Of a DNA stretch of 41,318 bases, positions 1 through 32,822 are shown piece after piece. The stretch covers positions 1 through 41,318 of the forward strand of contig JBBKXB010000021.1 of NCBI GenBank assembly GCA_037969255.1, given 5' to 3'. The DNA is from Bdellovibrionales bacterium (GTDB taxonomy: Bacteria > Pseudomonadota > Alphaproteobacteria > Micavibrionales > JBBKXB01). Both the position numbers and the translations under genes were made by a program. Below the pieces are notes generated by a model, which saw only the letters and a list, made by a program, of their open reading frames with translations, did not search any database and was not told the origin of the DNA. Within the stretch, counting starts at the first letter, position 1; every line of letters starts with the position of its first letter.

Positions 1-218
1 GTGTAAGATTTCACAGAACCTTTTTCTATGAAATAAACATAGTCCGCCACCGAACCTTCCATAAAAATTACGCCGTTTTTGCTGATGGTGACAACACTGC
101 ATGCCTCAAAATATCGTTCTTGTTCTATTTTGGGATAAATACTTAAAAATTTTGAAAACGATGATGGCTTCTGCGCGCTCAGGCCAGAATGGTATTTTTT
201 TATGTCAACGTGATCCAC
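1..218 (-). CDS. Crp/Fnr-family (cNMP-binding domain) protein, 5' part only; runs off window
   Basis: Not in the ORF track. My manual translation from GTG at 218 (RBS GAGGTG upstream) gives MDHVDIKKY...CSVVTISKNGVIFMEGSVADYVYFIEKGSVKSY, matching the IFxEG...YFIxxGxV pattern of cNMP-binding domains. Confidence 0.75.
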   Translation of the reverse strand, partial: MDHVDIKKYHSGLSAQKPSSFSKFLSIYPKIEQERYFEACSVVTISKNGVIFMEGSVADYVYFIEKGSVKSY

Positions 219-10956: not shown

Positions 10957-11486
10957 TGGATGTAAAGGCGCCCAGAGGCATGACACCGCCAAAAGGTGCG
11001 GAACTTCGTCACACAGAGCGCAGCGATACAGACAATCACATTGATAAAGAGGATATGGATCGTCATCGCCGTGGCAAGAAAAACACGGATGAGTATGAGC
11101 GCACCGATATTTATGATGATTTGACCCAAGTGTCGATAAAACTGTTGCGCGGATTCTTACAAGGCTTGCTTGATACGCGTGACAAACTTCATGACACGCG
11201 CCGTGAACACGCCATCAAAAGCAATCCAGCCGTTCAGGCCTATCAAACCGCCAAATTTATGGCGCCTGACACGCCGCGCCCAGCGCCAGAAGTGGATGAA
11301 AACGTGGAAGTGGTTGGTTTTTCGCGCAAAGAACTCGCCGCCGAAGGTCTTAATCAAGACGAGATCAAATCTCTCATGTCCGCGCTTGCGCATTTGGACA
11401 CTGCGGGCGTCCATTTTATTGAAATGCAACGCGCCGATAGTTTTCTTATCTCGATAAAAGAGGCTATAGAACGGGTTAGTATTTAA
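10956..11486 (+). CDS. Hypothetical protein (176 aa)
   Basis: TGATG coupling to the upstream gene; codon usage looks like the core genes. Confidence 0.7.
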   Translation: MDVKAPRGMTPPKGAELRHTERSDTDNHIDKEDMDRHRRGKKNTDEYERTDIYDDLTQVSIKLLRGFLQGLLDTRDKLHDTRREHAIKSNPAVQAYQTAKFMAPDTPRPAPEVDENVEVVGFSRKELAAEGLNQDEIKSLMSALAHLDTAGVHFIEMQRADSFLISIKEAIERVSI

Positions 11487-11487
11487 T

Positions 11488-11501
11488 TATATTGACATAG
11501 T
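11488..11501 (+). repeat. 14-bp inverted repeat, left arm (TATATTGACATAGT), containing a sigma70 -35 box
   Basis: Exact reverse complement of 12066-12079; TTGACA at 11492 followed by GCTAATAAT and an AAGGA RBS. Confidence 0.8.
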
Positions 11502-11548
11502 ATTAATGAGCGTGCTAATAATTGGTTACAATCAAAAGGATGTAAACT

Positions 11549-11977
11549 ATGTCGACCGAAACAAGCAAGATCAATACAGTCATTGATGGTGCAGCACGAT
11601 ACTACACATCTGGTACTGGCAACCTGTCCAAAGTACCGAGTAACTTTCTGACCAACGGCGTAATAGCTGGTGTGATTAACTACGTTCTTACGGAGGCGCC
11701 TTCTGCTACAACCCAATTTACCATTGTATCATCTGGTGCTACATCTGCTATTGCATTTAGTCTTGCTATGCTATTAATAGCCCCTTCAATGATGCTCATG
11801 CTTCCTAAAGGGTTGGGAACAGCTGATCATAAAGAGCACACCAAATCAGATTTGTTGGGTAAGGGGCTTGCGTTGGCATTGCCTTTAATCGGCTCTATAG
11901 CTTGCGCCAATTATGTAGCACAAGATTTAAATTCTAGTCACGCAGCAAAACCATTACTATCAATAGTCGGTCTATAA
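11549..11977 (+). CDS. Small membrane protein, dispersed Gly/Ala family member
   Basis: Own promoter and RBS; family motif HTKSDLLGKGLALALP. Confidence 0.75.
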   Translation: MSTETSKINTVIDGAARYYTSGTGNLSKVPSNFLTNGVIAGVINYVLTEAPSATTQFTIVSSGATSAIAFSLAMLLIAPSMMLMLPKGLGTADHKEHTKSDLLGKGLALALPLIGSIACANYVAQDLNSSHAAKPLLSIVGL

Positions 11978-11978
11978 T

Positions 11979-12023
11979 TTAGTTATATTTTAATTCTCGG
12001 TTTTGCGAGGGTGACGTAGTCAT
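11979..12023 (-). other. 14-codon micro-ORF or truncated remnant (MTTSPSQNRELKYN)
   Basis: Preceded by TTGACA-N16-TATAGA and AAGGT; stops 1 nt from the stop of the convergent 11549 gene. Confidence 0.35.
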
Positions 12024-12065
12024 ACCTTATATTTTATTTAACCCTACTCTATAGCCAATTTTTCG

Positions 12066-12079
12066 ACTATGTCAATATA
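12066..12079 (-). repeat. 14-bp inverted repeat, right arm, containing a sigma70 -35 box
   Basis: ACTATGTCAATATA is the reverse complement of 11488-11501. Confidence 0.8.
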
Positions 12080-12081
12080 TT

Positions 12082-12098
12082 TTGGCATATAAATTGCA
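12082..12098 (+). promoter_or_regulatory. Sigma-54 (-24/-12) promoter
   Basis: TTGGCATATAAATTGCA with exact GG-N10-GC spacing (GG 12084-85, GC 12096-97). Confidence 0.7.
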
Positions 12099-12109
12099 CT
12101 GTATAAGAT

Positions 12110-12499
12110 ATGTTAGAAATCGCGCAATCCAACGCTATCCCTACACCTCAGAGTCAAACAAGTGACTCTAATACGTTTGCCAAGAAAACTTTTGAAAGCG
12201 TGATTGATACGGTGAACCCCCTTCATCACATACCCATTATTGGGCAATTATACCGCACAATTTCGGGCGATGAAATATCCCCACAATCAAGTTTCGCGGG
12301 TGGTTTTCTCTTTGGCGGGCCATTGGGCGCACTTGGTGCCACGGCGAGCCTTATTATTGGCGGGGTTATTGGTGATATGAGTGGGAATAATGACACGGTT
12401 CAAACGGCGTTTAATGCGCATAGTGCCAAAAATTTAGGCGGGGACGCACCCCGGCATCCCCGCATCGACATATCTGATCCATGGCGCTTTAACAGCTAA
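12110..12499 (+). CDS. Conserved hypothetical protein
   Basis: DTVNPLHHIPIIGQLYRTISGDEI...GGFLFGGPLG resembles a conserved proteobacterial hypothetical family. Confidence 0.75.
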   Translation: MLEIAQSNAIPTPQSQTSDSNTFAKKTFESVIDTVNPLHHIPIIGQLYRTISGDEISPQSSFAGGFLFGGPLGALGATASLIIGGVIGDMSGNNDTVQTAFNAHSAKNLGGDAPRHPRIDISDPWRFNS

Positions 12500-12540
12500 A
12501 TGGTCAAAGATGATTTGTACCTATACTATTTTCTAAGAAA

Positions 12541-13764
12541 TTATACGCGTAATGTATGAACCTGTGCTTCAAAACGCTTTGTTTTGCGGCGGTCACGCTT
12601 GATTGTTGGGAATGCAAGGATAATCGCACTGCCTTCATGTGTTGCTGTGTCGGCATTTTTAGATTTGCCTGTTTGCATTTTGATTTCTGCATCGCGGAAC
12701 GAGCGCTCGAATTTCACAAACCACATGAAATTAGCATTTGAACGGTCGCGCACTTCGCCATAAAACCCATCATCTAACAATGTCATGAAGTGATCGATAA
12801 GGTAGTTACGGCCAATGTTTGAACGTTTACCAACACTGCGCAAGGCTTCGATGGCTTCGCTGTTTGATGTTTCAATCGCTTCGCTCGCTTCATCACTAGA
12901 GGCAAGAAGCACTTGGATCAAAGCGCGATCGGCTTTGCGTGTACGACCTGAATAAAACCATTGATCAAAAGCAGCAATCGCGGCTTTACCATCGCGTAAA
13001 GCGCGGAAATCGTCACTTGCACGATGAGCAAAAGCGTAGGCTAAATCAGCCACACCGCTTTTTGATACGTAATCCCAAGCAGTGTTATCGCCCGATAATT
13101 TCATTTCCCATGCAACTTGAACCGGTGCACACGCAAGCTCAGCTTGCATAGAACGGTTCAAAAGGATCGCACGATCTGGATTGACCAATAATGCGCGCAC
13201 ATCCACCATTTGCATGGCGCGGATACCGCGAACAATATTAAGGGCTGTTGCCACTACATTTTGCGCGATTGGGATAAAGATGGTGTTTGATGCGTAATCT
13301 ACATCCATTTGATCAATTATATTACTCGCTTCAATGGCAATGTTATTGTCTGTGGCAAAAGCGATGTATTCACGAGCGAGGTCGCTGTGTTTAAGCATAT
13401 CCAATGCGTCATCAATGGATGAGCCTTGAACCGGTGCAAATGCATTTTCGCACAACGCGGCTAAATCGTCTGTTAAAGGAAGGCCACATTCTGGATCACC
13501 GAGTGTGATAAAACCTTCTGATGTTTCTTTGGCTTGTTTTAAAGCATCTGGGATCATGCTATCGGCAAGATCGGCTTCTAGGCTGTCTTCAAAGCTCATC
13601 ATGAGTTCGTCATCTGAAGCATCAGCATAAAAATGATTGTCAGAAGCCACAAAGCTACACATCACAGGCGCTTGCCCTTTAAATGTCATAGCTATTTTTG
13701 GCTGATTGCTTGAAAGCGCAACGGCGCTCATCATTTCATCTAGTATATTCTTGTTGTCGGACAT
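12541..13764 (-). CDS. Hypothetical protein, possibly a degenerate DUF6782-like metallopeptidase
   Basis: GGGAGAG RBS before ATG 13764; NRSMQAE...VQVAWEMK..G segment; no HExxH motif. Family call is tentative. Confidence 0.6.
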   Translation of the reverse strand: MSDNKNILDEMMSAVALSSNQPKIAMTFKGQAPVMCSFVASDNHFYADASDDELMMSFEDSLEADLADSMIPDALKQAKETSEGFITLGDPECGLPLTDDLAALCENAFAPVQGSSIDDALDMLKHSDLAREYIAFATDNNIAIEASNIIDQMDVDYASNTIFIPIAQNVVATALNIVRGIRAMQMVDVRALLVNPDRAILLNRSMQAELACAPVQVAWEMKLSGDNTAWDYVSKSGVADLAYAFAHRASDDFRALRDGKAAIAAFDQWFYSGRTRKADRALIQVLLASSDEASEAIETSNSEAIEALRSVGKRSNIGRNYLIDHFMTLLDDGFYGEVRDRSNANFMWFVKFERSFRDAEIKMQTGKSKNADTATHEGSAIILAFPTIKRDRRKTKRFEAQVHTLRV

Positions 13765-13800
13765 TTGATGTCTCTCCCTGGTACATGCGTCAATAAAACG

Positions 13801-13867
13801 GGTTCTTAAGAACCTCTTTTTCTGCGATACATTCATAATGACAAAGAATAGTTAACAAGGTGTGAAC
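13801..13867. promoter_or_regulatory. 14-bp palindrome plus CtrA-like site
   Basis: GGTTCTTAAGAACC (13801-13814, perfect palindrome); GTTAACAAGGTGTGAAC (13851-13867), i.e. TTAA-N7-TTAA with one mismatch. Confidence 0.45.
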
Positions 13868-13969
13868 AATGGCTAAAAATCCTACAATTCCTTTGATAGC
13901 CTTGGTTTTTGGGCGATTTTTATGCGCTAGCACGGATGGTTTTGCAGGCCACTTTCCTTAATCAACGCA

Positions 13970-14566
13970 TCAAGCGCTGAGCGCTTGATCTTGAACGGGC
14001 AATGTATCGGCCAATATCTCGGTTGGTTTCAACATGACAGAGCCCTTTTTATCAATCGTTGCCAGCGCTTTGAATAATTTATCACCGATCAAAAAACATC
14101 CCTCAATCTCATGGCTCGATTGAATATGAGTTGGCGTGATCAGCGCTTGCAAATTACGGCGCGTGATCAATGTTAATTCCTCGCGCAAAATTAGATCATC
14201 AACATTTTGGATGGTCAGAACGCGTCCCGCTTGACCGCGCGTGAACCCGAGATAGAAAAATAAATAATCACATATATTGGTCTTATTCAGGTCTAAACCC
14301 GCTTTTTGAACCAATGTTTCGACCACATCCCCACCATATTCGCAAAGGGAGACATCATTATCGATATCAATAATGTAGTGACGCTTTTGTGAAAGATCAT
14401 CTTCATCGATAATTTCGGCCAGACTTGACGACTTCTTAAAAAAATCTAATTTCCAAGAAAGGCCTTTCCATTTGGCTTTTTCAAGACCTGCTTTTTTGGC
14501 CCAATCTTGCGCCGCGCGTGTCTTGAGTAGGTCTGCGTCGCATTGGAGCGCTAGAGGAGGTGTCAT
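13970..14566 (-). CDS. Hypothetical protein (198 aa) flanking the origin
   Basis: AAGGA RBS, clean ORF, no recognised motif. Confidence 0.7.
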   Translation of the reverse strand: MTPPLALQCDADLLKTRAAQDWAKKAGLEKAKWKGLSWKLDFFKKSSSLAEIIDEDDLSQKRHYIIDIDNDVSLCEYGGDVVETLVQKAGLDLNKTNICDYLFFYLGFTRGQAGRVLTIQNVDDLILREELTLITRRNLQALITPTHIQSSHEIEGCFLIGDKLFKALATIDKKGSVMLKPTEILADTLPVQDQALSA

Positions 14567-14943
14567 CGATATGTCCTTTTGTCGGTTTCATTTAAGAATA
14601 TGATCTTAGGGGCGCTATCGGGGATGAAGCGCGTTTCGCATAGGATCAACTCTGTGGACAATCATGGGGGAAAATACTTATCCACCCAAGCCTTTTTTCA
14701 CCCCCACCTTATCCCCATGTGTAAAACTTGGAATCTGTATTGGGCATAGAGTCTAAAGAATCAATTTTTTCAAAGCCCTTAAATATGAAATAGCAGACTC
14801 ATAGATCTGGGGATAAGGAGTCAGTGCACGTGATTCATATAGATCAATTACAACAATAAATACAGATTAAGACTCTTCATTAAATTAAGATTACTCATCC
14901 CTCTTTTCAAACCGACCTAACTCGTGTCAGTGTCCTAACCAAC
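14567..14943. other. Candidate chromosomal replication origin (oriC)
   Basis: Intergenic region upstream of hemE, the usual alphaproteobacterial position. DnaA-box variants: TGTGGACAA 14653, TTATCCACC 14678, TTATCCCCA 14709, TGGGGATAA 14808. Seven GANTC sites between 14731 and 14875, and an AT-rich stretch at ~14840-14895. Confidence 0.8.
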
Positions 14944-15933
14944 ATGAACAACAAAACTTTATCGCATAAAAATATTAACAATTCCTTAATGGGTCAAAAA
15001 CCTATTTGGCTTATGCGACAAGCGGGACGCTATTTGCCTGAATACATGGACATCCGTCAAAAAATAGGTGGGTTTGTTGATCTTTGTATGAACCCTGATA
15101 TGGCATCCGAAGTGACCTTGCAACCCATAAAACGCTTTGATTTTGATGCTGCGATTATCTTTTCTGATATCTTGATGATCCCTTATGCATTGGGTCAAAA
15201 ACTATGGTTTGAAACGGGTGAAGGGCCACGACTTGGTGATCTTAATTGGCATGAATTTGACGCTCAAAAACTTCAACCCGTATACGATGCCATCACACTG
15301 ACCCGTCAAAATTTAGACGATGAAAAATCATTAATAGGCTTTGCGGGTGCGCCTTGGACATTACTACTTTATACCTTGCAAGGACGCGGTGGTAATGACT
15401 TTGTAACCGCACGTTCCATGGTTTATAATGATCTTGAAAATGCTAAAAAACTTTTAAAAATCTTAGAACAATCGGTGATTGAGCATTTGTCTAATCAGAT
15501 AAAAGCGGGCGCCGATGTGGTTCAAATATTTGATAGCTGGGCGGGTCTATGCCCTGCACAATTGCAAAATGATTTCTTGATTGACCCCGTTAAGAATATC
15601 GTTAGCGCGCTTAAAAAACTGCATCCTGATGTGACCATTATTGCGTTTCCAAAGGGCTATAAAGACCTTAATCAATACACAAAAATTATTGGCAATGATG
15701 TGGTCGGGATTGATCAGTTTTCGCATCTTACATGGGTTGATAAAGATATTGCGACCCAAGGCAATCTTGATCCGCTGGTTCTTATTCAAGGTGGTGATGT
15801 TTTAGAAAAAGCGGTTCTATCAATCTTAGAGAAAACAGAAAACCGCGCCCATATTTTCAATCTTGGTCATGGCATTGATAAAACAACGCCCATCGCCCAC
15901 GTCGAACAACTTGTAAGATTTGTAAAAGGGTAA
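14944..15933 (+). CDS. hemE: Uroporphyrinogen decarboxylase
   Basis: PIWLMRQAGRYLPEY, LIGFAGAPWTL, HIFNLGHGI. Confidence 0.98.
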   Translation: MNNKTLSHKNINNSLMGQKPIWLMRQAGRYLPEYMDIRQKIGGFVDLCMNPDMASEVTLQPIKRFDFDAAIIFSDILMIPYALGQKLWFETGEGPRLGDLNWHEFDAQKLQPVYDAITLTRQNLDDEKSLIGFAGAPWTLLLYTLQGRGGNDFVTARSMVYNDLENAKKLLKILEQSVIEHLSNQIKAGADVVQIFDSWAGLCPAQLQNDFLIDPVKNIVSALKKLHPDVTIIAFPKGYKDLNQYTKIIGNDVVGIDQFSHLTWVDKDIATQGNLDPLVLIQGGDVLEKAVLSILEKTENRAHIFNLGHGIDKTTPIAHVEQLVRFVKG

Positions 15934-15934
15934 T

Positions 15935-16378
15935 TTAAGAAGGAGTACAGTTAGAATATCGAATTGCATTTCCTTTCATATTTGTACAATCTAAAACGCC
16001 AGATTCAAGAACTACAGGCTGTACTTTGTGTTGTTCAGGCAGTTGAGTTGAAATAGCCATTATTGTTGCAGCAGCACCAATCAGATATGATCCGGATGTT
16101 GTAAATGGTTTACCTGATTCCACAGCAACAACAGTAGCAGCAACAACAGTAGCAGCAGCACCAATAATAGCAACACCCAAAAGAGCAGCACCAGTAACAA
16201 CAGTAGCACCACCAGGACCAATAGCAGCACTAATAGCAGCATAAGCACCAATAGCCTTATAAACAGCACCAGCACTAATAGTAGCACCAATAATAGTACC
16301 ACATAACCCACTGCCAACAACAGCCATCAGTAATTTCTTAGTACCGTTATCTTCAAATCCAGTTGTGATTTCACTCAT
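15935..16378 (-). CDS. Small glycine-zipper membrane protein with C-terminal Cys pair, dispersed family member
   Basis: Promoter, AAAGGA RBS and ATG; long Gly/Ala/Ile/Val tract; ends ..DC...SNCTPS. Confidence 0.75.
   Translation of the reverse strand: MSEITTGFEDNGTKKLLMAVVGSGLCGTIIGATISAGAVYKAIGAYAAISAAIGPGGATVVTGAALLGVAIIGAAATVVAATVVAVESGKPFTTSGSYLIGAAATIMAISTQLPEQHKVQPVVLESGVLDCTNMKGNAIRYSNCTPS
16122..16327 (-). repeat. Low-complexity trinucleotide tract (GCT/GGT/GTT/ATT/ACT codons)
   Basis: Nearly all codons of the minus-strand ORF in this stretch end in T and start with a purine. Confidence 0.8.
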
Positions 16379-16411
16379 TATAATTTCCTTTGTTTAATAA
16401 ATATTTAAAAC

Positions 16412-16440
16412 AGACTACATAGTTGTTTTTAATATGTCAA
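16412..16440 (-). promoter_or_regulatory. Sigma70-type promoter of the 15935-16378 gene
   Basis: TTGACA-tattaaaaacaactatg(17)-TAGTCT. Confidence 0.7.
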
Positions 16441-16487
16441 TACATATTTTATGACAGTGATGTTATTTATTGTTAAAAATATAACCC

Positions 16488-17522
16488 ATGAAAACAGCGG
16501 TCATATTATTTAATCTTGGTGGACCTGATAGCGCCTCATCTATTAAACCGTTTTTGAAAAACTTCTTTATGGACAAAGCCATTATTCCCGCGCCGCGCCC
16601 GTTTCGTGATGTGATATCGAGCCTGATTGCCAATAAACGATCCCGCGCAGAGGCTGGTCAGAGCTATGGCGAGATAGGTGGAGCATCACCACTCCTTAAA
16701 AACACGAACGCACAAGCGGACGCGCTTCAAATAACCCTTGGTGATGATTTTAAAACCTTTACGTGCATGCGCTATTGGCATCCCATGGCAAAAGATGTTG
16801 TGGGGCAGGTCAAAGACTACAACCCAGAGCGCATCATTTTATTACCCCTTTACCCACAACTTTCAACAACCACCACCAGCTCGAGCTACAAAGAGTGGAT
16901 GAAACATGCTAAAAAAACGGGTCTAAAATCACAAACTTTGGCGTGCTGTTATCCAACGAATGAAGGCTTTATAACAGCCAGCGCGGATAACATAAAATTG
17001 AAATATAACGAAATGGTCAAAAATGGTCAAACACCGCGCGTGTTATTTTCCGCCCACGGTGTGCCGTTATTTGTGCTTAAACGCGGTGATCCGTATCAAT
17101 GGCAATGCACACAAACCGCCCATGCCATTGTTAAAAAACTAAGCATCAAGGATTTAGATTGGGCAGAATGTTATCAATCACGCGTGGGGCCAACCAAATG
17201 GACAACGCCGTCCGTTGAGGACGAACTGAAACGCGCCGCCAGTGATAAAACGCCCGTGCTTTTATACCCCCATGCGTTTGTGAGTGAGCATGTGGAAACG
17301 CTTGTCGAGCTCGATATTGAATATAAAGACATGGCCGAAGGTTTGGGTATCAAAGGATATGAGCGCGCGCAAACCGTGTCGACCCATCCCGATTTTATCG
17401 CAGGGTTAAAAAAGATTGTTCTAAACGCTTTAAAGGACGATAATAACATCCAAGGCGCTGGTAAAAATGGACAATCTATATGCCCACCACAATTCACCGC
17501 CTGCGCGTGTCGAAATAATTAG
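16488..17522 (+). CDS. hemH: Ferrochelatase (Cys-rich C-terminus, probable [2Fe-2S] type)
   Basis: LFNLGGP, MRYWHP, LPLYPQ, LFSAHG, YQSRVGP, FVSEHVETLVELD; C-terminal Cx6CxC. Confidence 0.97.
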   Translation: MKTAVILFNLGGPDSASSIKPFLKNFFMDKAIIPAPRPFRDVISSLIANKRSRAEAGQSYGEIGGASPLLKNTNAQADALQITLGDDFKTFTCMRYWHPMAKDVVGQVKDYNPERIILLPLYPQLSTTTTSSSYKEWMKHAKKTGLKSQTLACCYPTNEGFITASADNIKLKYNEMVKNGQTPRVLFSAHGVPLFVLKRGDPYQWQCTQTAHAIVKKLSIKDLDWAECYQSRVGPTKWTTPSVEDELKRAASDKTPVLLYPHAFVSEHVETLVELDIEYKDMAEGLGIKGYERAQTVSTHPDFIAGLKKIVLNALKDDNNIQGAGKNGQSICPPQFTACACRNN

Positions 17523-18017
17523 TTATTTTGGAACACAACTCTTAGGCACAAATACAGTGCGTGACCCATCGGGATTTTTTGTGATGACAGGTTTATTTTC
17601 CGATGAAGCGCATTTAAAATTAAGACGAGCATCATGCGCTATTGGCGGTGAAACAATAGGCTTTGGATTATTTAATTCGTGTTGATAGGCCACATAACCA
17701 GCCGTTAACGGCAGCCCTAAACCAACAGCAACCCCAAATAATTGGCTTATTTTATGTTTTTTTCGATCTACATTTCCACCAACAGCGCCACCAACAACAG
17801 CACCAAGAGCAAGAGCCCCAACAGCCCCAAGAGCAAGAGCCCCAAGAGCACCACCACCAACAACAGCCCCAAGAGCACTAACAGCACCAACAGCCCCAAG
17901 AGCACCAACACCAAGAGCACCAACAACAACAGCCCCAAGAGCACCAATAGCACCAACAGCACTACCACCAACAGCATCAGCAGCAGTTGAGATTCTATCT
18001 TTTAAAATTTGTTCCAT
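17523..18017 (-). CDS. Small glycine-zipper membrane protein with C-terminal Cys pair, dispersed family member
   Basis: AAAGGA RBS; MEQILKDRIST, (GA[LV])n tract, HKISQLFGVAVGLGLP motif; ends KC...KSCVPK. Confidence 0.78.
   Translation of the reverse strand: MEQILKDRISTAADAVGGSAVGAIGALGAVVVGALGVGALGAVGAVSALGAVVGGGALGALALGAVGALALGAVVGGAVGGNVDRKKHKISQLFGVAVGLGLPLTAGYVAYQHELNNPKPIVSPPIAHDARLNFKCASSENKPVITKNPDGSRTVFVPKSCVPK
17777..17986 (-). repeat. Degenerate tandem repeat encoding (G-A-[LVI])n
   Basis: Recurrent ccccaagagc / accaacagc units; the + strand has only about 4 T in ~210 nt. Confidence 0.88.
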
Positions 18018-18047
18018 ATTAATAATCCTTTTTATTTTAATAATGCC

Positions 18048-18076
18048 AACTCAGCACAATATTTACAATATGTCAA
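18048..18076 (-). promoter_or_regulatory. Sigma70-type promoter of the 17523-18017 gene
   Basis: TTGACA-tattgtaaatattgtgc(17)-TGAGTT; the -10 box is weak. Confidence 0.55.
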
Positions 18077-18122
18077 TAATTATTATGTCGCAGAGTTGCT
18101 GTTTTTGGCTATTATGCTTGTC

Positions 18123-18551
18123 ATGACTTTTTACCTTATTTTAAAAGCCCTACACATTATCGCCGTGATTTCATGGATGGCTGGAATGCTTTATTTGCCG
18201 CGCTTGTTTGTGTATCACATGGAGGCTAAATCAAAGGAGACACGCGAGACGTTCAAAACGATGGAGCGCCGTTTGTATAAATACATTATGACCCCTGCCA
18301 TGATTGGGACGTGGCTTCTTGGCATAACGTTACTCGCACAACAACCGTATTATATGACCCAAGGGTGGATGCACGCCAAATTATTATTGGTATTACTAAT
18401 GAGCGGTGCACATGGTTATATGGGCGGCTGCGTCCGAAAATTTGCTAGCGATGCCAACACAAAATCATCAAAATTTTACCGTTACCTCAATGAAGTCCCA
18501 ACGCTTTTGATGATCGTTATTGTATTCTTGGTGATCTTAAAAGGGTTTTGA
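18123..18551 (+). CDS. hemJ: Protoporphyrinogen IX oxidase HemJ
   Basis: KALHIIAVISWMAGMLYLPRLFVYH, MERRLY, WMHAKL, NEVPT. Start moved from TTG 18009 to ATG 18123. Confidence 0.96.
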   Translation: MTFYLILKALHIIAVISWMAGMLYLPRLFVYHMEAKSKETRETFKTMERRLYKYIMTPAMIGTWLLGITLLAQQPYYMTQGWMHAKLLLVLLMSGAHGYMGGCVRKFASDANTKSSKFYRYLNEVPTLLMIVIVFLVILKGF

Positions 18552-18923
18552 TATAGGAGCGGGGGCAGAAGAAGCAGTTGATATCCTCATAGTATTATGA
18601 TTTTTATCAATACTACCTAATGTTATTGGTGTTCCTAGTCCCGCAATGACAGCCATTAACGTTATTGCTTTATGAGTTCCAAATCTCGTATTAGCACCGG
18701 CACTTATTTGTTTATTGGGCATCCAATTACCTTGTTCGGTTCTATGAGCAATGACTGTTTTTGGAGATGAATTGTAAGCCCAAATCATACCAGAAAGACA
18801 AATTATAATTCCACCAGCCAAAGCTCCCATATTAGACCCATCCAGAAAAAGCCCTGCCAAGCCACTTAACGCGAAAGCACCGCTTCCAGTCGAAATTCTA
18901 TTTTTTGTTACTTGTTTCATCAT
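18537..18923 (-). CDS. Small membrane protein, dispersed family member
   Basis: AGAGGA RBS; MKQVTKNRIST and HKAITLMAVIAGLGTP motifs; overlaps the hemJ end by 15 nt. Confidence 0.75.
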   Translation of the reverse strand: MMKQVTKNRISTGSGAFALSGLAGLFLDGSNMGALAGGIIICLSGMIWAYNSSPKTVIAHRTEQGNWMPNKQISAGANTRFGTHKAITLMAVIAGLGTPITLGSIDKNHNTMRISTASSAPAPISKPF

Positions 18924-18941
18924 GATATCCTCTTTAATTTT

Positions 18942-19247
18942 TTAAGGCGTTAAAACACCAGCGCCTGTCATAACGGGCAATGCAAGGCCTGTTAATCCGC
19001 CCAATGTTACAGCCAGTGCATGTGAAGCTAGATTTTTAGACTCTCCACTTGAGCTTAACCCGACCGAGTTTTTTGCAAAAGCACCGCCGAACATTATTAA
19101 AACCATTCCAACCACCGCAGCACCTGTTCTTGCGGCACCTTCAAAAGCTATAGGCGTAATTAGAAGCGCAGCAATAGCTCCTATAGCCAGCCCTAGTGAC
19201 ATAGTATTAAAATGATTGCTGGTTCTTTTAATGATACTTTTATTCAT
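18942..19247 (-). CDS. Small membrane protein, dispersed family member
   Basis: AAGGGGG RBS before ATG 19247; three hydrophobic segments; HALAVTLGGLTGLALP motif. Confidence 0.75.
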   Translation of the reverse strand: MNKSIIKRTSNHFNTMSLGLAIGAIAALLITPIAFEGAARTGAAVVGMVLIMFGGAFAKNSVGLSSSGESKNLASHALAVTLGGLTGLALPVMTGAGVLTP

Positions 19248-19275
19248 GGTAGCCCCCTTGATCTTTGACACCAAT

Positions 19276-19304
19276 TTAATAACAACCTTATTTTAATATG
19301 TCAA
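19276..19304 (-). promoter_or_regulatory. Sigma70-type promoter of the 19247/18923 gene pair
   Basis: TTGACA-tattaaaataaggttgt(17)-TATTAA. Confidence 0.65.
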
Positions 19305-19319
19305 CGCCATTCTGCCCTC

Positions 19320-19348
19320 TTGACAGAGTATGCTAAAAAGCCCTAAAT
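19320..19348 (+). promoter_or_regulatory. Candidate rho promoter
   Basis: TTGACA-N17-CTAAAT, back-to-back with the minus-strand promoter. Confidence 0.5.
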
Positions 19349-19456
19349 GGCGTTATTCCCATCAATCCTGATCAGGATAACCCTCTCCCAGCCAGACCTT
19401 TTTATTCTTAAAAGATGGCTCAACACATCACAAAACCATAGTAAATTATCACCCTT

Positions 19457-20713
19457 ATGAATTTAAAAGACCTCAAAGCCCACAAACCTAACGAACTCAT
19501 TGAACTTGCTGAAGAGCTAGAGATTGAGAACATACCCTCCCTTCGTAAACAAGAATTGATGCTCGCCATCCTTAAGCAAATGGCCGATGACGGCGAAGTG
19601 TTGCATGGTGGCGGTGTGATCGAAGTCCTTCAAGACGGATTTGGATTTTTACGTTCTGCTGAGGAAAACTATCTTCCAGGGCCCGACGATATTTACATGG
19701 CACCCGCCCAAGTTAAGAAATTTGGCCTACGCACAGGCGACACAGTCGAGGGCGAGATCCGCGCTCCCAAAGACAATGAACGCTATTTCGCGATGCTTAA
19801 CATTGAAAGCATCAACCATGATGAGCCTGAAAAACTGCGCCATCGCATTAACTTTGATAATTTAACGCCGCTTTATCCCGATCGTAAGATCAAGCTTGAG
19901 CTAGACGATAAAACAAAAGACGACAACACACAGCGCGTGATTGAACTTGTGACACCGCTTGGTTTTGGTCAACGTGCATTGATTGTTGCCCCGCCACGCG
20001 TGGGTAAAACAGTGATGCTCCAAAACATCGCGCATTCAATCTCTGCCAATCATCCCGAAGCCTATTTGATGGTATTGCTTATCGATGAACGCCCCGAAGA
20101 AGTGACCGACATGGATCGCTCTGTGAAGGGTGAAGTGGTTAGCTCAACATTTGATGAACCCGCGACACGCCACGTACAAGTGGCCGAAATGGTGATCGAA
20201 AAAGCAAAACGTCTTGTCGAGGCCAAACGCGATGTCGTGATTTTGCTTGATAACATCACGCGTCTTGCGCGCGCTTATAACACTGTTGTGCCATCATCGG
20301 GTAAAGTGCTTACGGGTGGTGTGGATGCCAACGCTTTGCAACGTCCAAAACGTTTCTTTGGTGCGGCGCGTAATGTTGAACAAGGCGGATCGTTGACCAT
20401 TATTTCAACATCCTTAATTGATACAGGCTCTCGCATGGATGAAGTGATCTTTGAAGAGTTCAAAGGAACGGGTAATGCCGAGATCGTGCTTGATCGTAAA
20501 ATCGCTGATAAACGTGTGTTCCCAGCCATTGACGTTCAAAAATCAGGAACTCGTAAAGAAGAATTGCTTGTCGATAAAGCCACATTGCAAAAAATGTGGA
20601 TATTGCGCCGTATCTTGAACCCAATGGGGACTGTGGATGCGATGGAATTCTTGCTTGGAAAACTTAAAGACACCAAATGCAATAATGACTTCTTTAATGG
20701 GATGAACCAGTAA
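19457..20713 (+). CDS. rho: Transcription termination factor Rho
   Basis: [45 protein letters not shown]. Confidence 0.99.
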
Positions 20714-20724
20714 AACTGATTGCT

Positions 20725-21051
20725 TTACAGCCCTAAAGTTTTAGCCGAGATGGTTAAATTTTCTGCTGGAGTGAGCTCAGGACTATGAAGCGTTGCCCCC
20801 GTAAGAGCCGCAGCAGTGGCTGCTGTAACAAAGGCAGTTTTAACAGCATCCAATTTGCGTCCAACAGCAAAAGTGCCTACAGCGCCAGCTAAATTCAATA
20901 CATATGATACAGCTTCGTGACCTGGACTTTCGATCCCGTCAGCCGCCATGTAAGACCTCATAACGAAACCTACTGCGCACATTATGCCAAAAGCAGTTCC
21001 TGCTAGACCGGCGCCTATAATTTTCCCTACATTTGATTGCGAATGATTCAT
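20725..21051 (-). CDS. Small Gly/Ala-rich membrane protein, probable dispersed family member
   Basis: AGGAG RBS before ATG 21051; three hydrophobic segments; family-type promoter. Confidence 0.72.
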   Translation of the reverse strand: MNHSQSNVGKIIGAGLAGTAFGIMCAVGFVMRSYMAADGIESPGHEAVSYVLNLAGAVGTFAVGRKLDAVKTAFVTAATAAALTGATLHSPELTPAENLTISAKTLGL

Positions 21052-21074
21052 AGCTATTCTCCTGATTAACAAAC

Positions 21075-21102
21075 AGTATACATTATTTTAACATTATGTC
21101 AA
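21075..21102 (-). promoter_or_regulatory. Sigma70-type promoter overlapping the last codons of the upstream gene
   Basis: TTGACA-taatgttaaaataatg(16)-TATACT; TTG ACA TAA is Leu-Thr-stop of the 21094 gene. Confidence 0.65.
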
Positions 21103-22557
21103 TAAATTATATCCATATACTGATCCTGCAATTACAATCATCACCGCAATTTCCCATCCCAAGCGTGGACGCGGTGTGTAGGTGAATTTATGGGATCGTG
21201 CGAACTGCATTTTACCAAAGATTATAATGCCGTGGAACACGATGATGCCTAAGATTGCGCCCACTAATGCCCCAATGATACCGCCGATAAACCATGATAA
21301 TCCCAGCGTCACGATGACACTGAGCGCCCATGCGAGGATGCGTTCTTTTCTGGTTTGTGCGATGATTTTGGAACGCGCTTTGGTTAATACTTCTTTGCGT
21401 GTACGCTCTGATAAACCAATTGGATATTTTTTGGCGACGATATAATTGGCCTTTTTAATCCCGTAATGGAGCACGTTTTCAAGCGCTTCATTGTATAAAC
21501 GTTTTGCATTATCGCTATATTTATCAAGGAATGTTGGGCAATGATTGATGCGCCCTTTGCGCCCCGCGGCTGTGACATCAAACGCCGCTTTGTCTTTGAC
21601 TTTGACGATGGTTTCGCACCATGGAATATCGCTCTCAATGCGGTAATAGAGGCTATTTGGATTGCCCTTAATCGTGCGTCTTGTTTCGTCCTCGGACGTG
21701 TCAGGTGGACTGGTCATGGGTTTGCCTATGACACTCATGGGTAAGTGTCCTTTTTTGGCCAAAACGCCAATGGCCGCAACGCCCAATAAATGGGATACGG
21801 CTCTGGGGGGTTCCGCGCTCATACGATGTGCCTGTACGCGCCATGCGAATGATAGACCCATCACATATTCTTTTTCACCCGATCCACCACACTCACGGCA
21901 ATGGCTGTGTCCCGTGCCATTACAAGGCTGACAACTTGTGACGCCATGTCCATCACACCGCAGACAACGCGTACGTCCATCGCCACCGCACCACGTACAC
22001 AAGGGGTCACTTAGATTGCCTTCGCCGCTGTGTCCCTTACCGCGACATTGTCCGCACCACTCTGTGCGCTCGCCTCGACATTGCGGACATACAGATTGCC
22101 CTTTGCCATGACATACAGGGCACCCGCCTTTGCCTTTGCCACTGCACGCATTGCATGGATCCTTATAGCCAAAATTGTAATGAAGCCCCGTGATGGGATA
22201 AATAGGTCTATCACCCTCTAGCCCCATGGCAGAGCGCTTTAATATTGTGCCTTCAATCACCGCCATGGCCTCAGGGCTTGTCATCAATCCTTCGGCTGCA
22301 CGTTCAATTTCCTCGGTCATTTCGGCTTTCGAGCCATAAATATGCGTTTTTTGATCTTTGGATTTCGTTGGTTTATCGTCTTGGTCAATGATTAAGCTCA
22401 GCTCAAGCAGGCTTTCGAGCTTAAATTTACCCGTTTCTTCACATACGAATTCAATGTCTTGCTTGGTGATCCCGTTGCCTTTGCTGACATAGGCAATCCC
22501 GCTCATAATTTTACGAGCTAGCGGTGATGCATTTTTGGGATAAGTATTTTCCATCAC
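21094..22557 (-). CDS. DnaJ-type zinc-finger (8x CxxCxGxG) membrane protein lacking a J-domain
   Basis: Eight CxxCxG motifs, no HPD motif, three C-terminal hydrophobic segments. Confidence 0.8.
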   Translation of the reverse strand: MMENTYPKNASPLARKIMSGIAYVSKGNGITKQDIEFVCEETGKFKLESLLELSLIIDQDDKPTKSKDQKTHIYGSKAEMTEEIERAAEGLMTSPEAMAVIEGTILKRSAMGLEGDRPIYPITGLHYNFGYKDPCNACSGKGKGGCPVCHGKGQSVCPQCRGERTEWCGQCRGKGHSGEGNLSDPLCTWCGGDGRTRCLRCDGHGVTSCQPCNGTGHSHCRECGGSGEKEYVMGLSFAWRVQAHRMSAEPPRAVSHLLGVAAIGVLAKKGHLPMSVIGKPMTSPPDTSEDETRRTIKGNPNSLYYRIESDIPWCETIVKVKDKAAFDVTAAGRKGRINHCPTFLDKYSDNAKRLYNEALENVLHYGIKKANYIVAKKYPIGLSERTRKEVLTKARSKIIAQTRKERILAWALSVIVTLGLSWFIGGIIGALVGAILGIIVFHGIIIFGKMQFARSHKFTYTPRPRLGWEIAVMIVIAGSVYGYNLLT

Positions 22558-22688
22558 TTAGGGCTTAATGCGTTTCATTCTTGCAATATGTCATTAAAAA
22601 ATATATACCTTTCAATATATTAAGATTATTATTTAATCTATAGACGCCTATTTTGTCAAAACAAGTCAACACGTACGAGGATAAAGTC

Positions 22689-22902: not shown

Positions 22903-24198
22903 TTGGATACGATTTATGCCATAGCCTCTGGCGCTGCGCCTGCTGGCATCGCAATTGTCCGCGTGTCTGGGCCTCTTGCACTGGATAGTTTGCGCAATCT
23001 AACGGACGGCGAACCGCTTCCGCAACCGCGCAGTGCCACATTGTTTCACGTGAAACATCCCAAAACGAACAAACATATTGATAGCGCCATAGCGCTCACG
23101 TTCCCGCAACCCAACTCGTATACGGGCGAAGACGTGGTGGAATACCATGTACATGGCGGTAAAGCCATCATTGATAGCTTGCTCAATGCGTTGTCCAGCC
23201 AAGATCGCCATCGCCCAGCCGAAGCAGGGGAATTCACAAAACGCGCGGTGCTTAACGGCCGTATGGATCTCACGCAAGCCGAGGCCGTGCATGATCTTAT
23301 TATGGCTGAAACTGAGGCTCAACGTGATCAAGCGCTGGCGCAACACCATGGCGCGTTGGCACGTTTATACGATGGATGGCGTACCGAGCTCACACGTTCG
23401 CTTGCTTATATCGAGGCATATCTGGACTTTCCCGATGAAGCGTTGCCCGAAGACTTGCTTGAAACTGTAAAACCATCAATTGAAGATATTTTATCGGGGC
23501 TAGAGGCGCATTTGAGCGATCCTAATTTAGGGGAACGCCTTCGTGAAGGCTTCCGCGTGGTGATAGCGGGTGCACCTAATGCAGGAAAGTCGACGCTGTT
23601 AAACGCCCTCACAAAACGCGAAGTGGCGATTGTGTCTTCTAAAGCGGGCACGACGCGTGATATTTTGGAAGTTCCGCTTAATTTGGGCGGTTTTCCCGTA
23701 CTTTTGACCGACACCGCGGGTATTCACGATCAATCGGATGATGATATCGAAATTGAAGGCATTCGCCGCGCCAAAGCCAAACTACAAGAGGCGGATATTC
23801 GCATACTCTTACTTGATCCGACGCAGGCCGTATCTGCGCAAATCGAGGATGCCGACATCACCGCGTGGACAAAAGCCGATATTGAAAAATCTCCCCCAGG
23901 GGCGCTCCCAATATCGGCTGAAACGGGTCAAGGATTGCCAGAGTTAATCAATGAAATTGTTGCGCAATTAAAGACACGTACCAATAAACGTCAAGGTCTT
24001 GGGCCTACACGGGCGCGCCATCGCCGCGCTCTCGAACAAGCATTGTTTCACGTGAAACAATCGCTTAACGCGCAATTGCCTGAGTTACTGGCCGAAGACA
24101 TCCGTCTGGCCTCGCGTGCTTTGGGCGAAATCACAGGGCGCGTTCACGTTGAGGACTTGCTTGATGTAATTTTCCGTGACTTTTGCATCGGCAAATAA
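22903..24198 (+). CDS. mnmE: tRNA modification GTPase MnmE
   Basis: DTIYAIASG, SYTGEDVVE..HGG, GAPNAGKSTL, GTTRD, DTAG, FCIGK. Confidence 0.98.
   Translation: MDTIYAIASGAAPAGIAIVRVSGPLALDSLRNLTDGEPLPQPRSATLFHVKHPKTNKHIDSAIALTFPQPNSYTGEDVVEYHVHGGKAIIDSLLNALSSQDRHRPAEAGEFTKRAVLNGRMDLTQAEAVHDLIMAETEAQRDQALAQHHGALARLYDGWRTELTRSLAYIEAYLDFPDEALPEDLLETVKPSIEDILSGLEAHLSDPNLGERLREGFRVVIAGAPNAGKSTLLNALTKREVAIVSSKAGTTRDILEVPLNLGGFPVLLTDTAGIHDQSDDDIEIEGIRRAKAKLQEADIRILLLDPTQAVSAQIEDADITAWTKADIEKSPPGALPISAETGQGLPELINEIVAQLKTRTNKRQGLGPTRARHRRALEQALFHVKQSLNAQLPELLAEDIRLASRALGEITGRVHVEDLLDVIFRDFCIGK
23042..23057. promoter_or_regulatory. parS site 1 (inside mnmE)
   Basis: Perfect TGTTTCACGTGAAACA. Confidence 0.92.
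24044..24059. promoter_or_regulatory. parS site 2 (inside mnmE)
   Basis: Perfect TGTTTCACGTGAAACA. Confidence 0.92.
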
Positions 24199-24557: not shown

Positions 24558-24662
24558 TTTCTGTCCTTAAATCCTTATTGTTTGGTTAGATAATATTGCG
24601 GAGATAAGAGATTATGAAGAAATTAGTGACTTTTATCAATGATAAAGGTATATGATCTTATT

Positions 24663-30280: not shown

Positions 30281-32822
30281 CGGACACCACTATGTTCACA
30301 ATTTTCCCAGGGATAGCGATGATTTTACGCACCGTTTTTCCGTTCAAATATTTGGCGATATGATCGTCATTCATCGCCTCTTTTTCAAGAGTATCTTTGT
30401 CAATATCGGTGGGAACAGTGATTGTACCGCGCACTTTGCCGTTTATTTGTACGCCAATTGTGACGTTTTCATCAATCAAATATGCCTCATTAAATGTTGG
30501 CCAATCGGAGAGATAAAGGGGTGTTTTATGACCGAGATTCTCCCACAATTCTTCGCATAAATGGGGAACAATAGGAGAGAGTAATTGCACAATGGTTTGG
30601 AGCGCGTACGTGTATGCGTCATCATCCATGCCGACTTGTTCAGCCATGTTATAAAGCTCGCGGATACGCGCCACAGATTTATTATAATGGAAGTTTTCAA
30701 TATCGTCCGATATGCCGGATATGGTTTGATGGGCTTTACGTGCCAGCTCATTATCCACATCATTATCCACAGGTTTATCAACGATATCTTGCACAGAGCG
30801 ATATAATTTATTGATAAAGCGCCACGCGCCATCAAGGCCCGCTTCTGACCATTCCAGATCACGATCTGGCGGGCTGTCGGATAGAATGAACAAACGGGCG
30901 GCATCTGCGCCATAGCTTTCAAATATATCGGTGGGATCAATCACATTTTTCTTGGATTTGGACATTTTAATGACCGCGCCCGCTGTGACCTTGAGATTTG
31001 ATCCTTTTTCACTTAACGATCCGTCATCGTTTTTGATGATGTCGGAGGGAAACACCCATTTATCATCCGCGTTTTTATAGGCGCGGTGATTGACCATGCC
31101 TTGCGTGTAGAGACCCTTAAACGGTTCTTTTATGTCCAAATACCCACAATGTTTCATAGCGCGGGTGAAGAAACGTGCGTAAAGAAGATGCATCACCGCA
31201 TGCTCGACACCGCCAATATATTGATCCACGGGTAGCCATTTATTGGCCTTAGACGCTTCAAACGGTTTGTTTTCATTGCGCGGATCGGTATAGCGTGCGA
31301 AATACCACGAGCTTTCAAAAAACGTGTCAAATGTATCCGTTTCGCGGATCGCAGGCTCGCCCGTTTCGGGGCATGTCGTATGTTTCCATGTTGGATGATT
31401 ATCAAGTGGATTGCCGTGCTGGGAAAAATCCACATCATCGGGCAAAGTAATTGGCAATTGATCTTTTGACACGGGGACACAAGCCCCATCAGATGTGCGA
31501 TACACCACAGGGATCGGGCAACCCCAATAACGTTGGCGTGACACGCCCCAATCGCGCAGGCGATAATTGGTTTGACCTTCGCCAATGCCCATTTTTTCCA
31601 TGCAAGCGATGATCTTTGTAATGGCTTCATCAGATGTGAGGCCATCCCATTCGTCAGAATTAACAAGCGTGCCTTTGCTGGTGAACGGTTTGCCGTCTTC
31701 AAAGCCAGCGCCCGTGATAACGGGGCGAATTGGCAGGCCGTATTTGGTGGCGAAATCAAAATCACGTTCATCGTGGGCAGGCGCGGATTTCACAGCGCCC
31801 GTTCCGTATGTGTAGATCACGAAATTACCGATATAAACGGGCATGTCCTCGTTCGTGAAAGGGTGGCGCACAGTGTAAGGCGTTTTAAAACCTTTCTTTT
31901 CGGCGCGTTCAATCGCCTCTTCACTTGTGCCCATTGTGCTACATTCTTCTAAGAAAGCTTCGGCATCTTTATCCGTTTCGGCAAGTTTCAAAGAAAGAGG
32001 ATGTTCAGGGGCAAGTACGGCAAAGCTCGTGCCCATGATGGTATCAATGCGTGTTGTGTAAACGGGTAGTTTTTCATCGCTTGCAAGATCAGGCCCAGAG
32101 ATATCAAAGCTAAAGGTTATGCCCTCAGATTTGCCAATCCAATGTTTTTGCATGGTTTTTACGCGTTCTGGCCAATCGGGCATGTTATCCAGTTCTGATA
32201 ATAACTCGTCGGCAAATTGCGTGGTTTTTAAAAACCATTGTTTTAAGTTTTTACGCTCGACAGCCGCGCCAGAGCGCCAACCTTTGCCATCAACCACTTG
32301 TTCGTTGGCCAATACTGTGTTTTCAACAGGATCCCAATTCACCGTGGATTCTTTTTGGTAGGCGAGGCCGTTTTTAAGAAAATCAAGGAACATGGCTTGT
32401 TCGTGTTTAAAATAGTCAGGGTGACAGGTGGCAATTTCTCTGTCCCAATCAAGAGATAGACCCATAAGTTTCAATTGACCGCGCATCACGGCGATGTTTT
32501 CATACGTCCATGTGGCGGGCTGTGCACCTCGTTCGATGGCGGCATTTTCGGCAGGCAAACCAAACGCATCCCAGCCCATTGGATGGAGCACATTATAGCC
32601 TTTTGCGCGTTTATAGCGCGCCACAACGTCGCCAAGTGTGTAATTGCGGACATGCCCAACATGGATTGCGCCCGACGGATAGGGAAACATTTCGAGCACA
32701 TAAAAAGGCTCTTTATCGGAGTCATCATCCGTTTTAAAAGCGTTGTTATCATTCCAAATTTTTTGCCATTTGGATTCGGTGGCGCGGATGTTGTAGCGAT
32801 CATTATCGGATGTGTCAGACAT
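30270..32822 (-). CDS. leuS: Leucine--tRNA ligase
   Basis: [42 protein letters not shown]. Confidence 0.99.
30751..30783 (+). promoter_or_regulatory. Tandem DnaA boxes inside leuS
   Basis: TTATCCACA 30751, TTATCCACA 30763 and TTATCAACG 30775, at a 12-bp period. Confidence 0.55.

Follow-up and report, generated by a model that had tools for sequence, protein, structure and literature searches.

Background

The closest described counterparts of the sequence treated here, the eight bases TTGACATA that recur before small genes in a 41,318-nucleotide (nt) stretch of DNA (contig JBBKXB010000021.1 of assembly GCA_037969255.1; the whole stretch analysed is called the window), are consensus sigma-70 promoters with an extended -10 element. 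The likeness lies in TTGACA, a spacer of 16-18 nt, A/T after the -35 and TG before the -10. According to the available text of PMC12641261, bacterial spacers start with an A/T tract, mainly of thymine, and finish with a G-rich end carrying a TG element, an arrangement that raises promoter strength. The four-part spacer described there accounts for conservation beyond TTGACA, though not for the specific TA that completes TTGACATA. The sites at our locus differ from those spacers in being TA-specific (16 of 36 sites in related loci, against 2 with TT), in having weak -10 hexamers and in being concentrated before genes of no known family.

For the alphaproteobacterium Sinorhizobium meliloti, the available part of PMC2873474 gives the sigma-70 consensus as CTTGAC-N17-CTATAT. 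A strong conserved -35, a 17-nt spacer and a less canonical -10 are common to that consensus and to our sites. In contrast, here A or T, not C, precedes TTGAC, and a conserved A at the sixth base is followed by TA.

Micavibrio-like bacteria are obligate predators. In Micavibrio aeruginosavorus ARL-13, as far as the available text of PMC3189940 goes, most of the highly expressed attack-phase genes are hypothetical, sigma-32 is up 12-fold in that phase, and the top attachment-phase transcript is that of a porin. The genes at our locus resemble the attack-phase hypothetical genes in belonging to the same clade, in being lineage-specific and of unknown function, and in being apparently built for high expression. 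The available text of the ARL-13 study holds no promoter analysis (the word "promoter" occurs 0 times). Our literature search found no paper on promoter motifs in the Micavibrio clade, and among the papers listed by a search on the 8-mer itself, the titles point to other subjects.

The probable promoter sites in the window

We suggest that the TTGACATA sites are probably self-sufficient strong sigma-70 promoters in a form preferred by the clade, driving AT-rich lineage-specific genes, and that neither a copied unit nor a dedicated regulator is needed to account for them. The underlying observation is confirmed as real and as more than chance. Counting both strands, the window contains 7 copies of TTGACATA, against a mean of 1.78 (standard deviation 1.27) in 100 dinucleotide-preserving shuffles, one of which reached 7. 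The five copies reported in the earlier note were recovered with their flanks at 11492(+), 16440(-), 18076(-), 19304(-) and 21102(-), and the first T does stand 57, 62, 59, 57 and 51 nt away from the ATG (ATG at 11549, 16378, 18017, 19247 and 21051). Two copies come in addition, one promoter-like at 12075(-) and one at 208(-), inside an open reading frame (ORF). The conservation was said to extend past TTGACA into the spacer, and this holds: outside coding sequence TA comes next in 6 of 9 curated TTGACA sites, against a background probability of TA after A of 0.118 (binomial p=1.7e-4). Neither one-mismatch variants of TTGACATA (52 vs 48 expected) nor generic sigma-70-like sites (43 vs 37.6 expected) are enriched in the window, so the signal resides in the perfect 8-mer. 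The sites and the genes behind them are as follows (SD, Shine-Dalgarno sequence; aa, amino acids).

11492..11499, + strand: TTGACATA, -35 hexamer plus TA of the F11549 promoter; 57 nt to ATG 11549
11516..11521, + strand: -10 candidate TAATAA of F11549; spacer 18, TGC before; AATAAT one base on is an alternative
11549..11977, + strand: F11549, 142-aa hydrophobic orphan; SD AAGGA 8-9 nt ahead of the ATG
12068..12075, - strand: sixth TTGACATA, with N18-TAGAGT at 12051-12046; points at the 3' end of F11549
16433..16440, - strand: TTGACATA, F16378 promoter; -10 TAGTCT at 16417-16412; 62 nt to ATG 16378
15935..16378, - strand: F16378, 147-aa Gly/Ala-rich membrane protein; hemE-hemH junction
18069..18076, - strand: TTGACATA, F18017 promoter; weak -10 TGAGTT at 18053-18048, TGC before; 59 nt to ATG 18017
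17523..18017, - strand: F18017, 164-aa Gly/Ala-repeat membrane protein; hemH-hemJ junction
19297..19304, - strand: TTGACATA, promoter of the F19247-F18923 pair; -10 TATTAA at 19281-19276, TGT before; 57 nt to ATG 19247
18942..19247, - strand: F19247, 101 aa; leads a probable two-gene unit; hemJ-rho junction
18537..18923, - strand: F18923, 128 aa, paralogue; 18 nt downstream of F19247, with its own SD and without TTGACATA
21095..21102, - strand: TTGACATA, F21051 promoter; -10 TATACT at 21080-21075; 51 nt to ATG 21051
20725..21051, - strand: F21051, 108-aa hydrophobic orphan; downstream of rho
24611..24639, - strand: variant promoter TTGATA-N17-CATAAT; 82 nt ahead of F24557 (24201-24557, 118 aa)
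19320..19327, + strand: candidate promoter of rho, TTGACAGA; stands back to back with the -35 of F19247; 137 nt to the rho ATG
201..208, - strand: TTGACATA, not promoter-like; codons 4-6 (5' end) of a truncated cNMP-binding (cyclic nucleotide monophosphate; Crp-like) ORF that leaves the window

The promoter identity of the sites is well supported by their anatomy, which combines a -35, a spacer, TG, a -10-like hexamer, a short leader and an SD. TTGACA is perfect in all six promoter-positioned sites of the window, and their spacers measure 16-18 nt. The best -10 hexamers (TAATAA, TAGTCT, TGAGTT, TATTAA, TATACT and TAGAGT) match TATAAT at 3, 3, 2, 4, 5 and 4 of 6 positions. In the five gene-linked sites, the spacer is A/T-rich at its start, TG lies within 3 nt of the -10-like hexamer, and the 23-33 nt from the -10 to the ATG include AAGG, AGGA or GGAG 7-9 nt before the ATG. 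Of all sigma-70 matches in the 17 kb scanned, the site at 21102 scores highest (11/12); its -35 overlaps the stop codon of the upstream 487-aa gene. The longest ORFs of the 19247 and 21051 genes begin at TTG 19274 and TTG 21072; these codons would coincide with the predicted transcript start or lie upstream of it, and they have no SD, so the cited ATGs are the better starts.

The rho promoter candidate, previously described as TTGACAGAG at 19320(+), was found again, as was the variant TTGATA-N17-CATAAT ahead of the 24557 gene. Back-to-back arrangements are seen at three sites: 16440(-) is opposite ATGACA-N18-AAAAAT, which ends 7 nt before the hemH ATG, 18076(-) is opposite the start region of hemJ, and 19304(-) is opposite the rho TTGACAGA. 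Behind the site at 12075(-) we found only a 14-codon ORF, whose translation is unlikely with an SD just 1 nt from the ATG. Back to back with this site, TTGGCATA-N14-TAAGAT (window 12082-12109) abuts the ATG of a 129-aa ORF at 12110. This element is too close to serve ATG 12110, and the ORF may be read through from F11549 or started elsewhere.

Proposed mechanism

The account starts from direct observations, namely the sequence anatomy, the recurrence across the clade, the enrichment before family-less genes and the coding signal; which sigma factor acts, where transcription starts, how strong the promoters are and what part, if any, the TA step plays we infer from the letters. TTGACATA would comprise the -35 element (TTGACA) and the two bases that open the spacer, read by RpoD/sigma-70. 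The perfect -35 would be bound by the holoenzyme, and the A/T-rich start of the spacer, together with the TG before a rather weak -10 located 16-18 nt downstream, would aid binding and opening. Transcription is predicted to start about 7 nt past the -10, leaving a leader of 15-25 nt, in which an AAGGA-type SD 7-9 nt before the ATG would allow translation of a small hydrophobic protein. The five units would act independently, as lineage-specific genes placed antisense in the junctions between hemE, hemH, hemJ, rho and the 487-aa gene. Since the units are antisense between core genes, each would need its own promoter. The shared 8-mer would then represent convergence on the perfect -35 form preferred in the clade, used mostly by AT-rich family-less genes.

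Recurrence across the clade

A ferrochelatase (hemH) scan of species-representative genomes retrieved 464 relatives, the best 80 of which are 50-60% identical; no match to the window hemH above 60% identity was found among these genomes. The clade sample consists of the best 80 of the 464 loci (L001-L080), with 20 kb around hemH each and 1,449,227 nt in all, labelled mostly as metagenome-assembled genomes of Micavibrio, Alphaproteobacteria or Rhodospirillales. Genes in the relatives were called by a greedy longest-ORF approximation, which makes the distances and the orphan denominators given below rough.

In these 80 loci, TA follows TTGACA in 9 of 361 coding and 19 of 110 intergenic sites. 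The proportion rises to 17/38 at 30-120 nt upstream of a same-strand ORF (background 0.087, p=5e-9), or 16/36 when near-identical contexts are merged; TT stands at the start of the spacer in only 2 of these 36 and G in 10. The 19 intergenic copies of TTGACATA compare with 7.1 expected under an order-3 Markov model. Twenty aligned sites from the relatives yield tttaTTGACATAat, and at the first two positions of a -10 at spacer 17 they have T in 15/20 and A in 13/20, respectively. The 8-mer occurs at the same distances as in the window ahead of unrelated genes in 15 other Micavibrio-like loci, and the genes behind it are unrelated to those of the window and mostly unrelated to each other.

The distance from TTGACATA to the called start in the relatives is 34-36 nt at 6 sites, 52-71 nt at 12 and 126 nt at 1. 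In the 34-36 nt class the ATG lies about 6-7 nt past the -10, a leaderless-like layout, examples of which include loci L005, L041, L062 and L073. Layouts of the leaderless type are also seen in the window, at hemH (16451-16490: ATGACA-N18-AAAAAT, 7 nt, ATG, without an SD) and at the 487-aa gene (22554-22594: ATGACATA-N18-CATTAA, 7 nt, GTG ATG).

The most over-represented intergenic 8-mers of the relatives are not promoter-like: CGAATCGA/TCGATTCG (33 vs 3.2 expected), GAATCGAT, AGTAGTAG and GTCCCTCG. Shared descent of conserved non-coding elements is the probable explanation for them.

Enrichment before genes of no known family

The earlier note proposed enrichment before orphan genes as a check and would have given way if the motif were equally common upstream of core genes. 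In the relatives the enrichment is present: a Pfam family is lacking in 16 of 19 genes behind TTGACATA and in 40 of 95 controls (p=0.0009), so that core genes do not carry the motif equally often. The controls were drawn at random from genes that lack TTGACA and have an upstream region to themselves, and were judged at a stricter E-value, which works against the contrast. The loci L069 and L071 are orthologous, and the 19 genes therefore represent 18 independent cases. Those with a Pfam family are rho, aroE and an OmpR-type regulator. Where TTGACA lacks the TA, the genes behind it fall in between, with 16/26 having no family (p=0.12 vs control).

A similar picture is obtained by conservation. 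Between -130 and +45 relative to the called start, TTGACATA is present in 2/751 ORFs conserved in at least 20 loci, 0/241 in 5-19 loci, 5/230 in 2-4 loci and 12/358 single-locus ORFs. When the count is limited to ORFs whose upstream gap is 60 nt or more, it becomes 1/381 vs 12/364 (p=0.0014). "Conserved" in this count means conserved near hemH, which is why the test was repeated with Pfam.

Within the window, TTGACATA precedes 5/17 genes without a Pfam family above the cut-off and 0/30 with one (p=0.004). It is found at 5/5 leading units of small proteins (11.5-21.1 kb) and at 0/21 other probable starts of transcription units. Besides the TTGACATA units, only rho among the 26 probable starts has a perfect TTGACA, and the porin has TTGGCA-N17-TATACT.

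A clade-wide regulon of small membrane proteins was considered and rejected, as small hydrophobic proteins make up 4/19 targets vs 104/823 controls (p=0.29).

The small proteins

For each of the seven small ORFs (101-164 aa), the codon log-likelihood is positive in the ORF's own frame and negative in all five others. Their proteins are hydrophobic and rich in Gly and Ala. They had been presented as five transcription units of one family, which is correct for three units only. F11549, F18017, F18923 and F19247 are detectable paralogues (blastp E of 3e-4 and 1e-4; 21-29% protein identity) that share K7, T10, H97, a GLxLP motif and an N-terminal K/R-I/F-S/N-T. The other two units, F16378 and F21051, encode look-alike proteins; together with F24557 they are alike in style only, being small, Gly/Ala-rich and hydrophobic. 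Among 9,006 local ORFs, a profile of the four paralogues missed F16378, F21051 and F24557 at E<=10.

Against 1.84 billion representative proteins, the same profile recovered only the four query proteins, and F11549 matched itself only in a word-indexed search of 5.8 billion proteins. Pfam gave nothing informative for the small proteins beyond a sub-threshold MARVEL hit, and NCBIfam, PHROGs and Atlas (best score 0.76) were equally uninformative. No hits were obtained by tblastn of the seven proteins in the 80 related loci at E<=1e-3. Imperfect internal tandem repeats encoding Gly/Ala/Val runs are present in F16378 and F18017 (window 16122-16306 and 17776-17985), with periods of 9, 12, 15, 24, 33 and 66 nt and a mutual resemblance of 60-65% over the repeats.

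Codon usage

The seven small genes have a GC content at third codon positions (GC3) of 0.14-0.36, compared with 0.43 +/- 0.05 in 29 annotated genes, the lowest of which is the porin (0.32). In four-fold boxes, T-ending codons reach 74% in F16378, 70% in F18017 and 62% in the porin, and 19%-40% in the other annotated genes checked. The T-ending bias of F16378 and F18017 would fit high expression of those two.

In the relatives, non-core genes behind TTGACATA have a GC3 with a median of 0.076 below that of core genes of the same locus; for the other orphan ORFs the median is -0.023 (difference p=0.003). The T-ending bias was also considered as a clade-wide mark of high expression, and this is unsupported in the relatives (p=0.37); here it is seen only in F16378 and F18017. 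The clade-wide codon signal appears to be one of A/T-richness, as expected of young or foreign genes, with no clear translational selection.

Origin and control of the units

Several observations speak against the sites being plain sigma-70 promoters. The -10 hexamers are weak, agreeing with TATAAT at 2-5 of 6 positions (TGAGTT for F18017), and downstream of the small genes there is no terminator-like site. The preference is for TA specifically and not for T or A generally, so the published "mainly thymine" tract leaves TA unexplained. The density in the window, 5-6 in 10 kb, is unusual against 17 of 588 rare or orphan ORFs with TTGACATA in the relatives, and the class-specificity in the window (absence at the porin, rpmI and rho) is not predicted by a purely generic housekeeping promoter. 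If promoter and gene had instead been duplicated together, as the earlier note offered, the 8-mer would be a relic of an ancestral upstream region. There are residual hints of copying. Besides the kinship of F11549, F18017, F18923 and F19247, the F11549 promoter (11485-11501) has a 16/17 inverted twin at 12066-12082, containing TTGACATAGT, so that the pair brackets F11549; a 16/17 direct copy of its -35 stretch lies at 19194-19210; and the upstream regions of F16378 and F18017 are 70% identical over 50 nt. However, among proteins only 21-29% identical the neutral flanks should be randomised, and what survives is exactly the functional consensus: six aligned upstream regions have only TTGACATA, scattered A/T, the SD and the ATG in common. 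By a rough estimate, about one chance 16/17 match is expected among position pairs in 14 kb, and more in A/T-rich DNA. F16378 and F21051 carry TTGACATA with no detectable kinship to the others (family profile E>10), and the same 8-mer stands ahead of unrelated genes in 15 other loci. Copying as a unit is weakly supported and not needed for a shared 8-mer, and only 3/5 units encode demonstrable paralogues; we regard common descent as unlikely, and co-duplication explains part of the pattern at most. The other suggestion of the earlier note was a regulon, for example a life-stage-specific one. A true regulon under a dedicated factor, either an alternative sigma or a DNA-binding protein that recognises TTGACATA with its flanks, for example in the predatory attack phase, would accommodate the contrast between the 5/5 leading small-protein units and the 0/21 other unit starts, as well as the TA-specific preference and the enrichment before family-less genes across the clade. 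It is also consistent with the mostly hypothetical nature of highly expressed attack-phase genes in ARL-13 and the 12-fold rise of sigma-32, as given in the available text of PMC3189940. On the other hand, the motif coincides with the -35 consensus of sigma-70 and has a -10 at canonical spacing, no dyad symmetry or second half-site is common to the sites, and core genes of the relatives (aroE, rho and the OmpR-type regulator) carry it too. The base before TTG is A in 5/6 and G in 1/6 sites of the window, and C in 2/20 sites of the relatives, unlike the CTTG of RpoH. A dedicated regulon therefore seems doubtful to us.

Phage morons are promoter-ORF-terminator units inserted between conserved genes, and the units of the window resemble them in being single small genes that carry a promoter of their own and separate genes that are neighbours in relatives. 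Mobile promoter-ORF cassettes, moron-like or similar to miniature inverted-repeat transposable elements, would have brought the promoter along when inserting between core genes. The occupied junctions are short in the relatives, as expected for insertion between adjacent genes, and the same junctions hold different orphan genes elsewhere, some with TTGACATA (L057, L062, L058). The low GC3 of the small genes and the GC3 deficit in the relatives (p=0.003 vs other orphans) agree with such an origin, and one 17-nt inverted pair flanks F11549. However, the other four units have no flanking inverted or direct repeats, terminators are absent, no transposase, integrase or phage protein was matched in PHROGs, Pfam or NCBIfam, and no copy of any unit was found in the 80 relatives or in 1.84 billion representative proteins. 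Unlike morons, the units are chromosomal and origin-proximal, not in a prophage, with neither terminators nor phage protein families. We consider cassettes very unlikely. Chance clustering of a common A/T-rich 8-mer is scarcely credible: intergenic DNA is A/T-rich and one shuffle in 100 did reach 7 copies, but 6/7 copies are in promoter position with a fixed geometry to SD and ATG, and TA after 6/9 non-coding TTGACA (p=1.7e-4) is replicated independently in the relatives (p=5e-9). A bolder proposal is that TTGACATA tags self-contained promoter-ORF units colonising origin-proximal junctions clade-wide and perhaps supplying attack-phase hypothetical proteins, with TA read by a clade-specific feature of RNA polymerase or a dedicated factor and the orphan genes forming a stage-linked regulon; this, too, we find improbable. 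The reading that we prefer is that of self-sufficient sigma-70 promoters, in which TTGACATA looks like an ordinary strong promoter in an interesting place and not a new control system.

The right-hand copy of the F11549 promoter (12066-12082) is a convergent promoter-like site without a convincing ORF; it could be a source of antisense RNA or the remnant of a lost gene.

Known regulators were also compared with the sites. The alphaproteobacterial RpoH (sigma-32) promoter consensus is CTTG-N17-18-CYTATNT. No C precedes TTG in the window sites and no CYTAT occurs in their -10 regions, which argues against RpoH. Readings of the spacer as Fnr/FixK-like, CtrA-like or GANTC were discarded, with no shared second half-site seen by eye.

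As a sequence tag for lineage-specific genes built for strong activator-independent transcription, TTGACATA would offer a cheap shortlist in the many uncultured genomes of the clade. The locus also illustrates how new genes can settle among packed, probably co-transcribed core genes near the likely origin, each with its own promoter. Should the element be only a strong standard promoter, it would still be useful as a first description of the promoter form in this clade.

Genomic setting and junctions

The DNA of the window comes from a Micavibrio-like alphaproteobacterium and forms its origin-proximal hemE-hemH-hemJ-rho-mnmE-mnmG block, comprising DUF6782, a 198-aa gene, hemE, hemH, hemJ, rho, the 487-aa gene, DUF6489, mnmE, mnmG, rsmG, parA and parB. 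The core order is conserved in the relatives, and tblastn in the 80 loci found hemE in 78, hemJ in 72, rho in 65 and mnmE in 45. The small genes of the window are antisense, and most of the junctions that hold them are far shorter in relatives (counts refer to loci with both genes, the window included).

hemE-hemH junction: 557 nt in the window; median 20 nt in 79 loci, 3 above 400 nt
hemH-hemJ junction: 489 nt in the window; median 69.5 nt in 66 loci, 19 above 400 nt
hemJ-rho junction: 908 nt in the window; median 309 nt in 61 loci, 22 above 400 nt

In the window, each small gene stops at most about 12 nt from the stop codon of its convergent core gene, and F18923 runs into the end of hemJ. 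Long junctions in the relatives hold other genes, mostly on the opposite strand and mostly of no family, a few of which encode small Gly/Ala-rich membrane proteins (L010, L022, L057). The small genes of the window are therefore lineage-specific residents of junctions whose content turns over within the clade. TTGACATA is found with unrelated genes in the same junctions, namely hemH-hemJ (L057, L062), hemJ-rho (L062) and mnmE-mnmG (L058). Across Micavibrio-like genomes, unrelated genes concentrate in four hot spots, the hemE-hemH, hemH-hemJ, hemJ-rho and mnmE-mnmG junctions.

Between the 198-aa gene and hemE, a 377-nt region (14567-14943) contains four one-mismatch DnaA-box-like 9-mers (14653-, 14678+, 14709+ and 14808-) and several GANTC sites; such 9-mers number 23 in the whole window vs 11.5 expected. 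This region is a likely replication origin, at the place where the origin lies in Caulobacter. Its placement is uncertain, since the cumulative GC skew turns near 22-24 kb instead. Elsewhere in the window, identical copies of a 19-nt palindrome (CATTGTTTCACGTGAAACA) lie 1 kb apart inside mnmE (23039-23057 and 24041-24059), and two perfect TTATCCACA boxes are found 3 nt apart within the leuS coding region (30751-30771).

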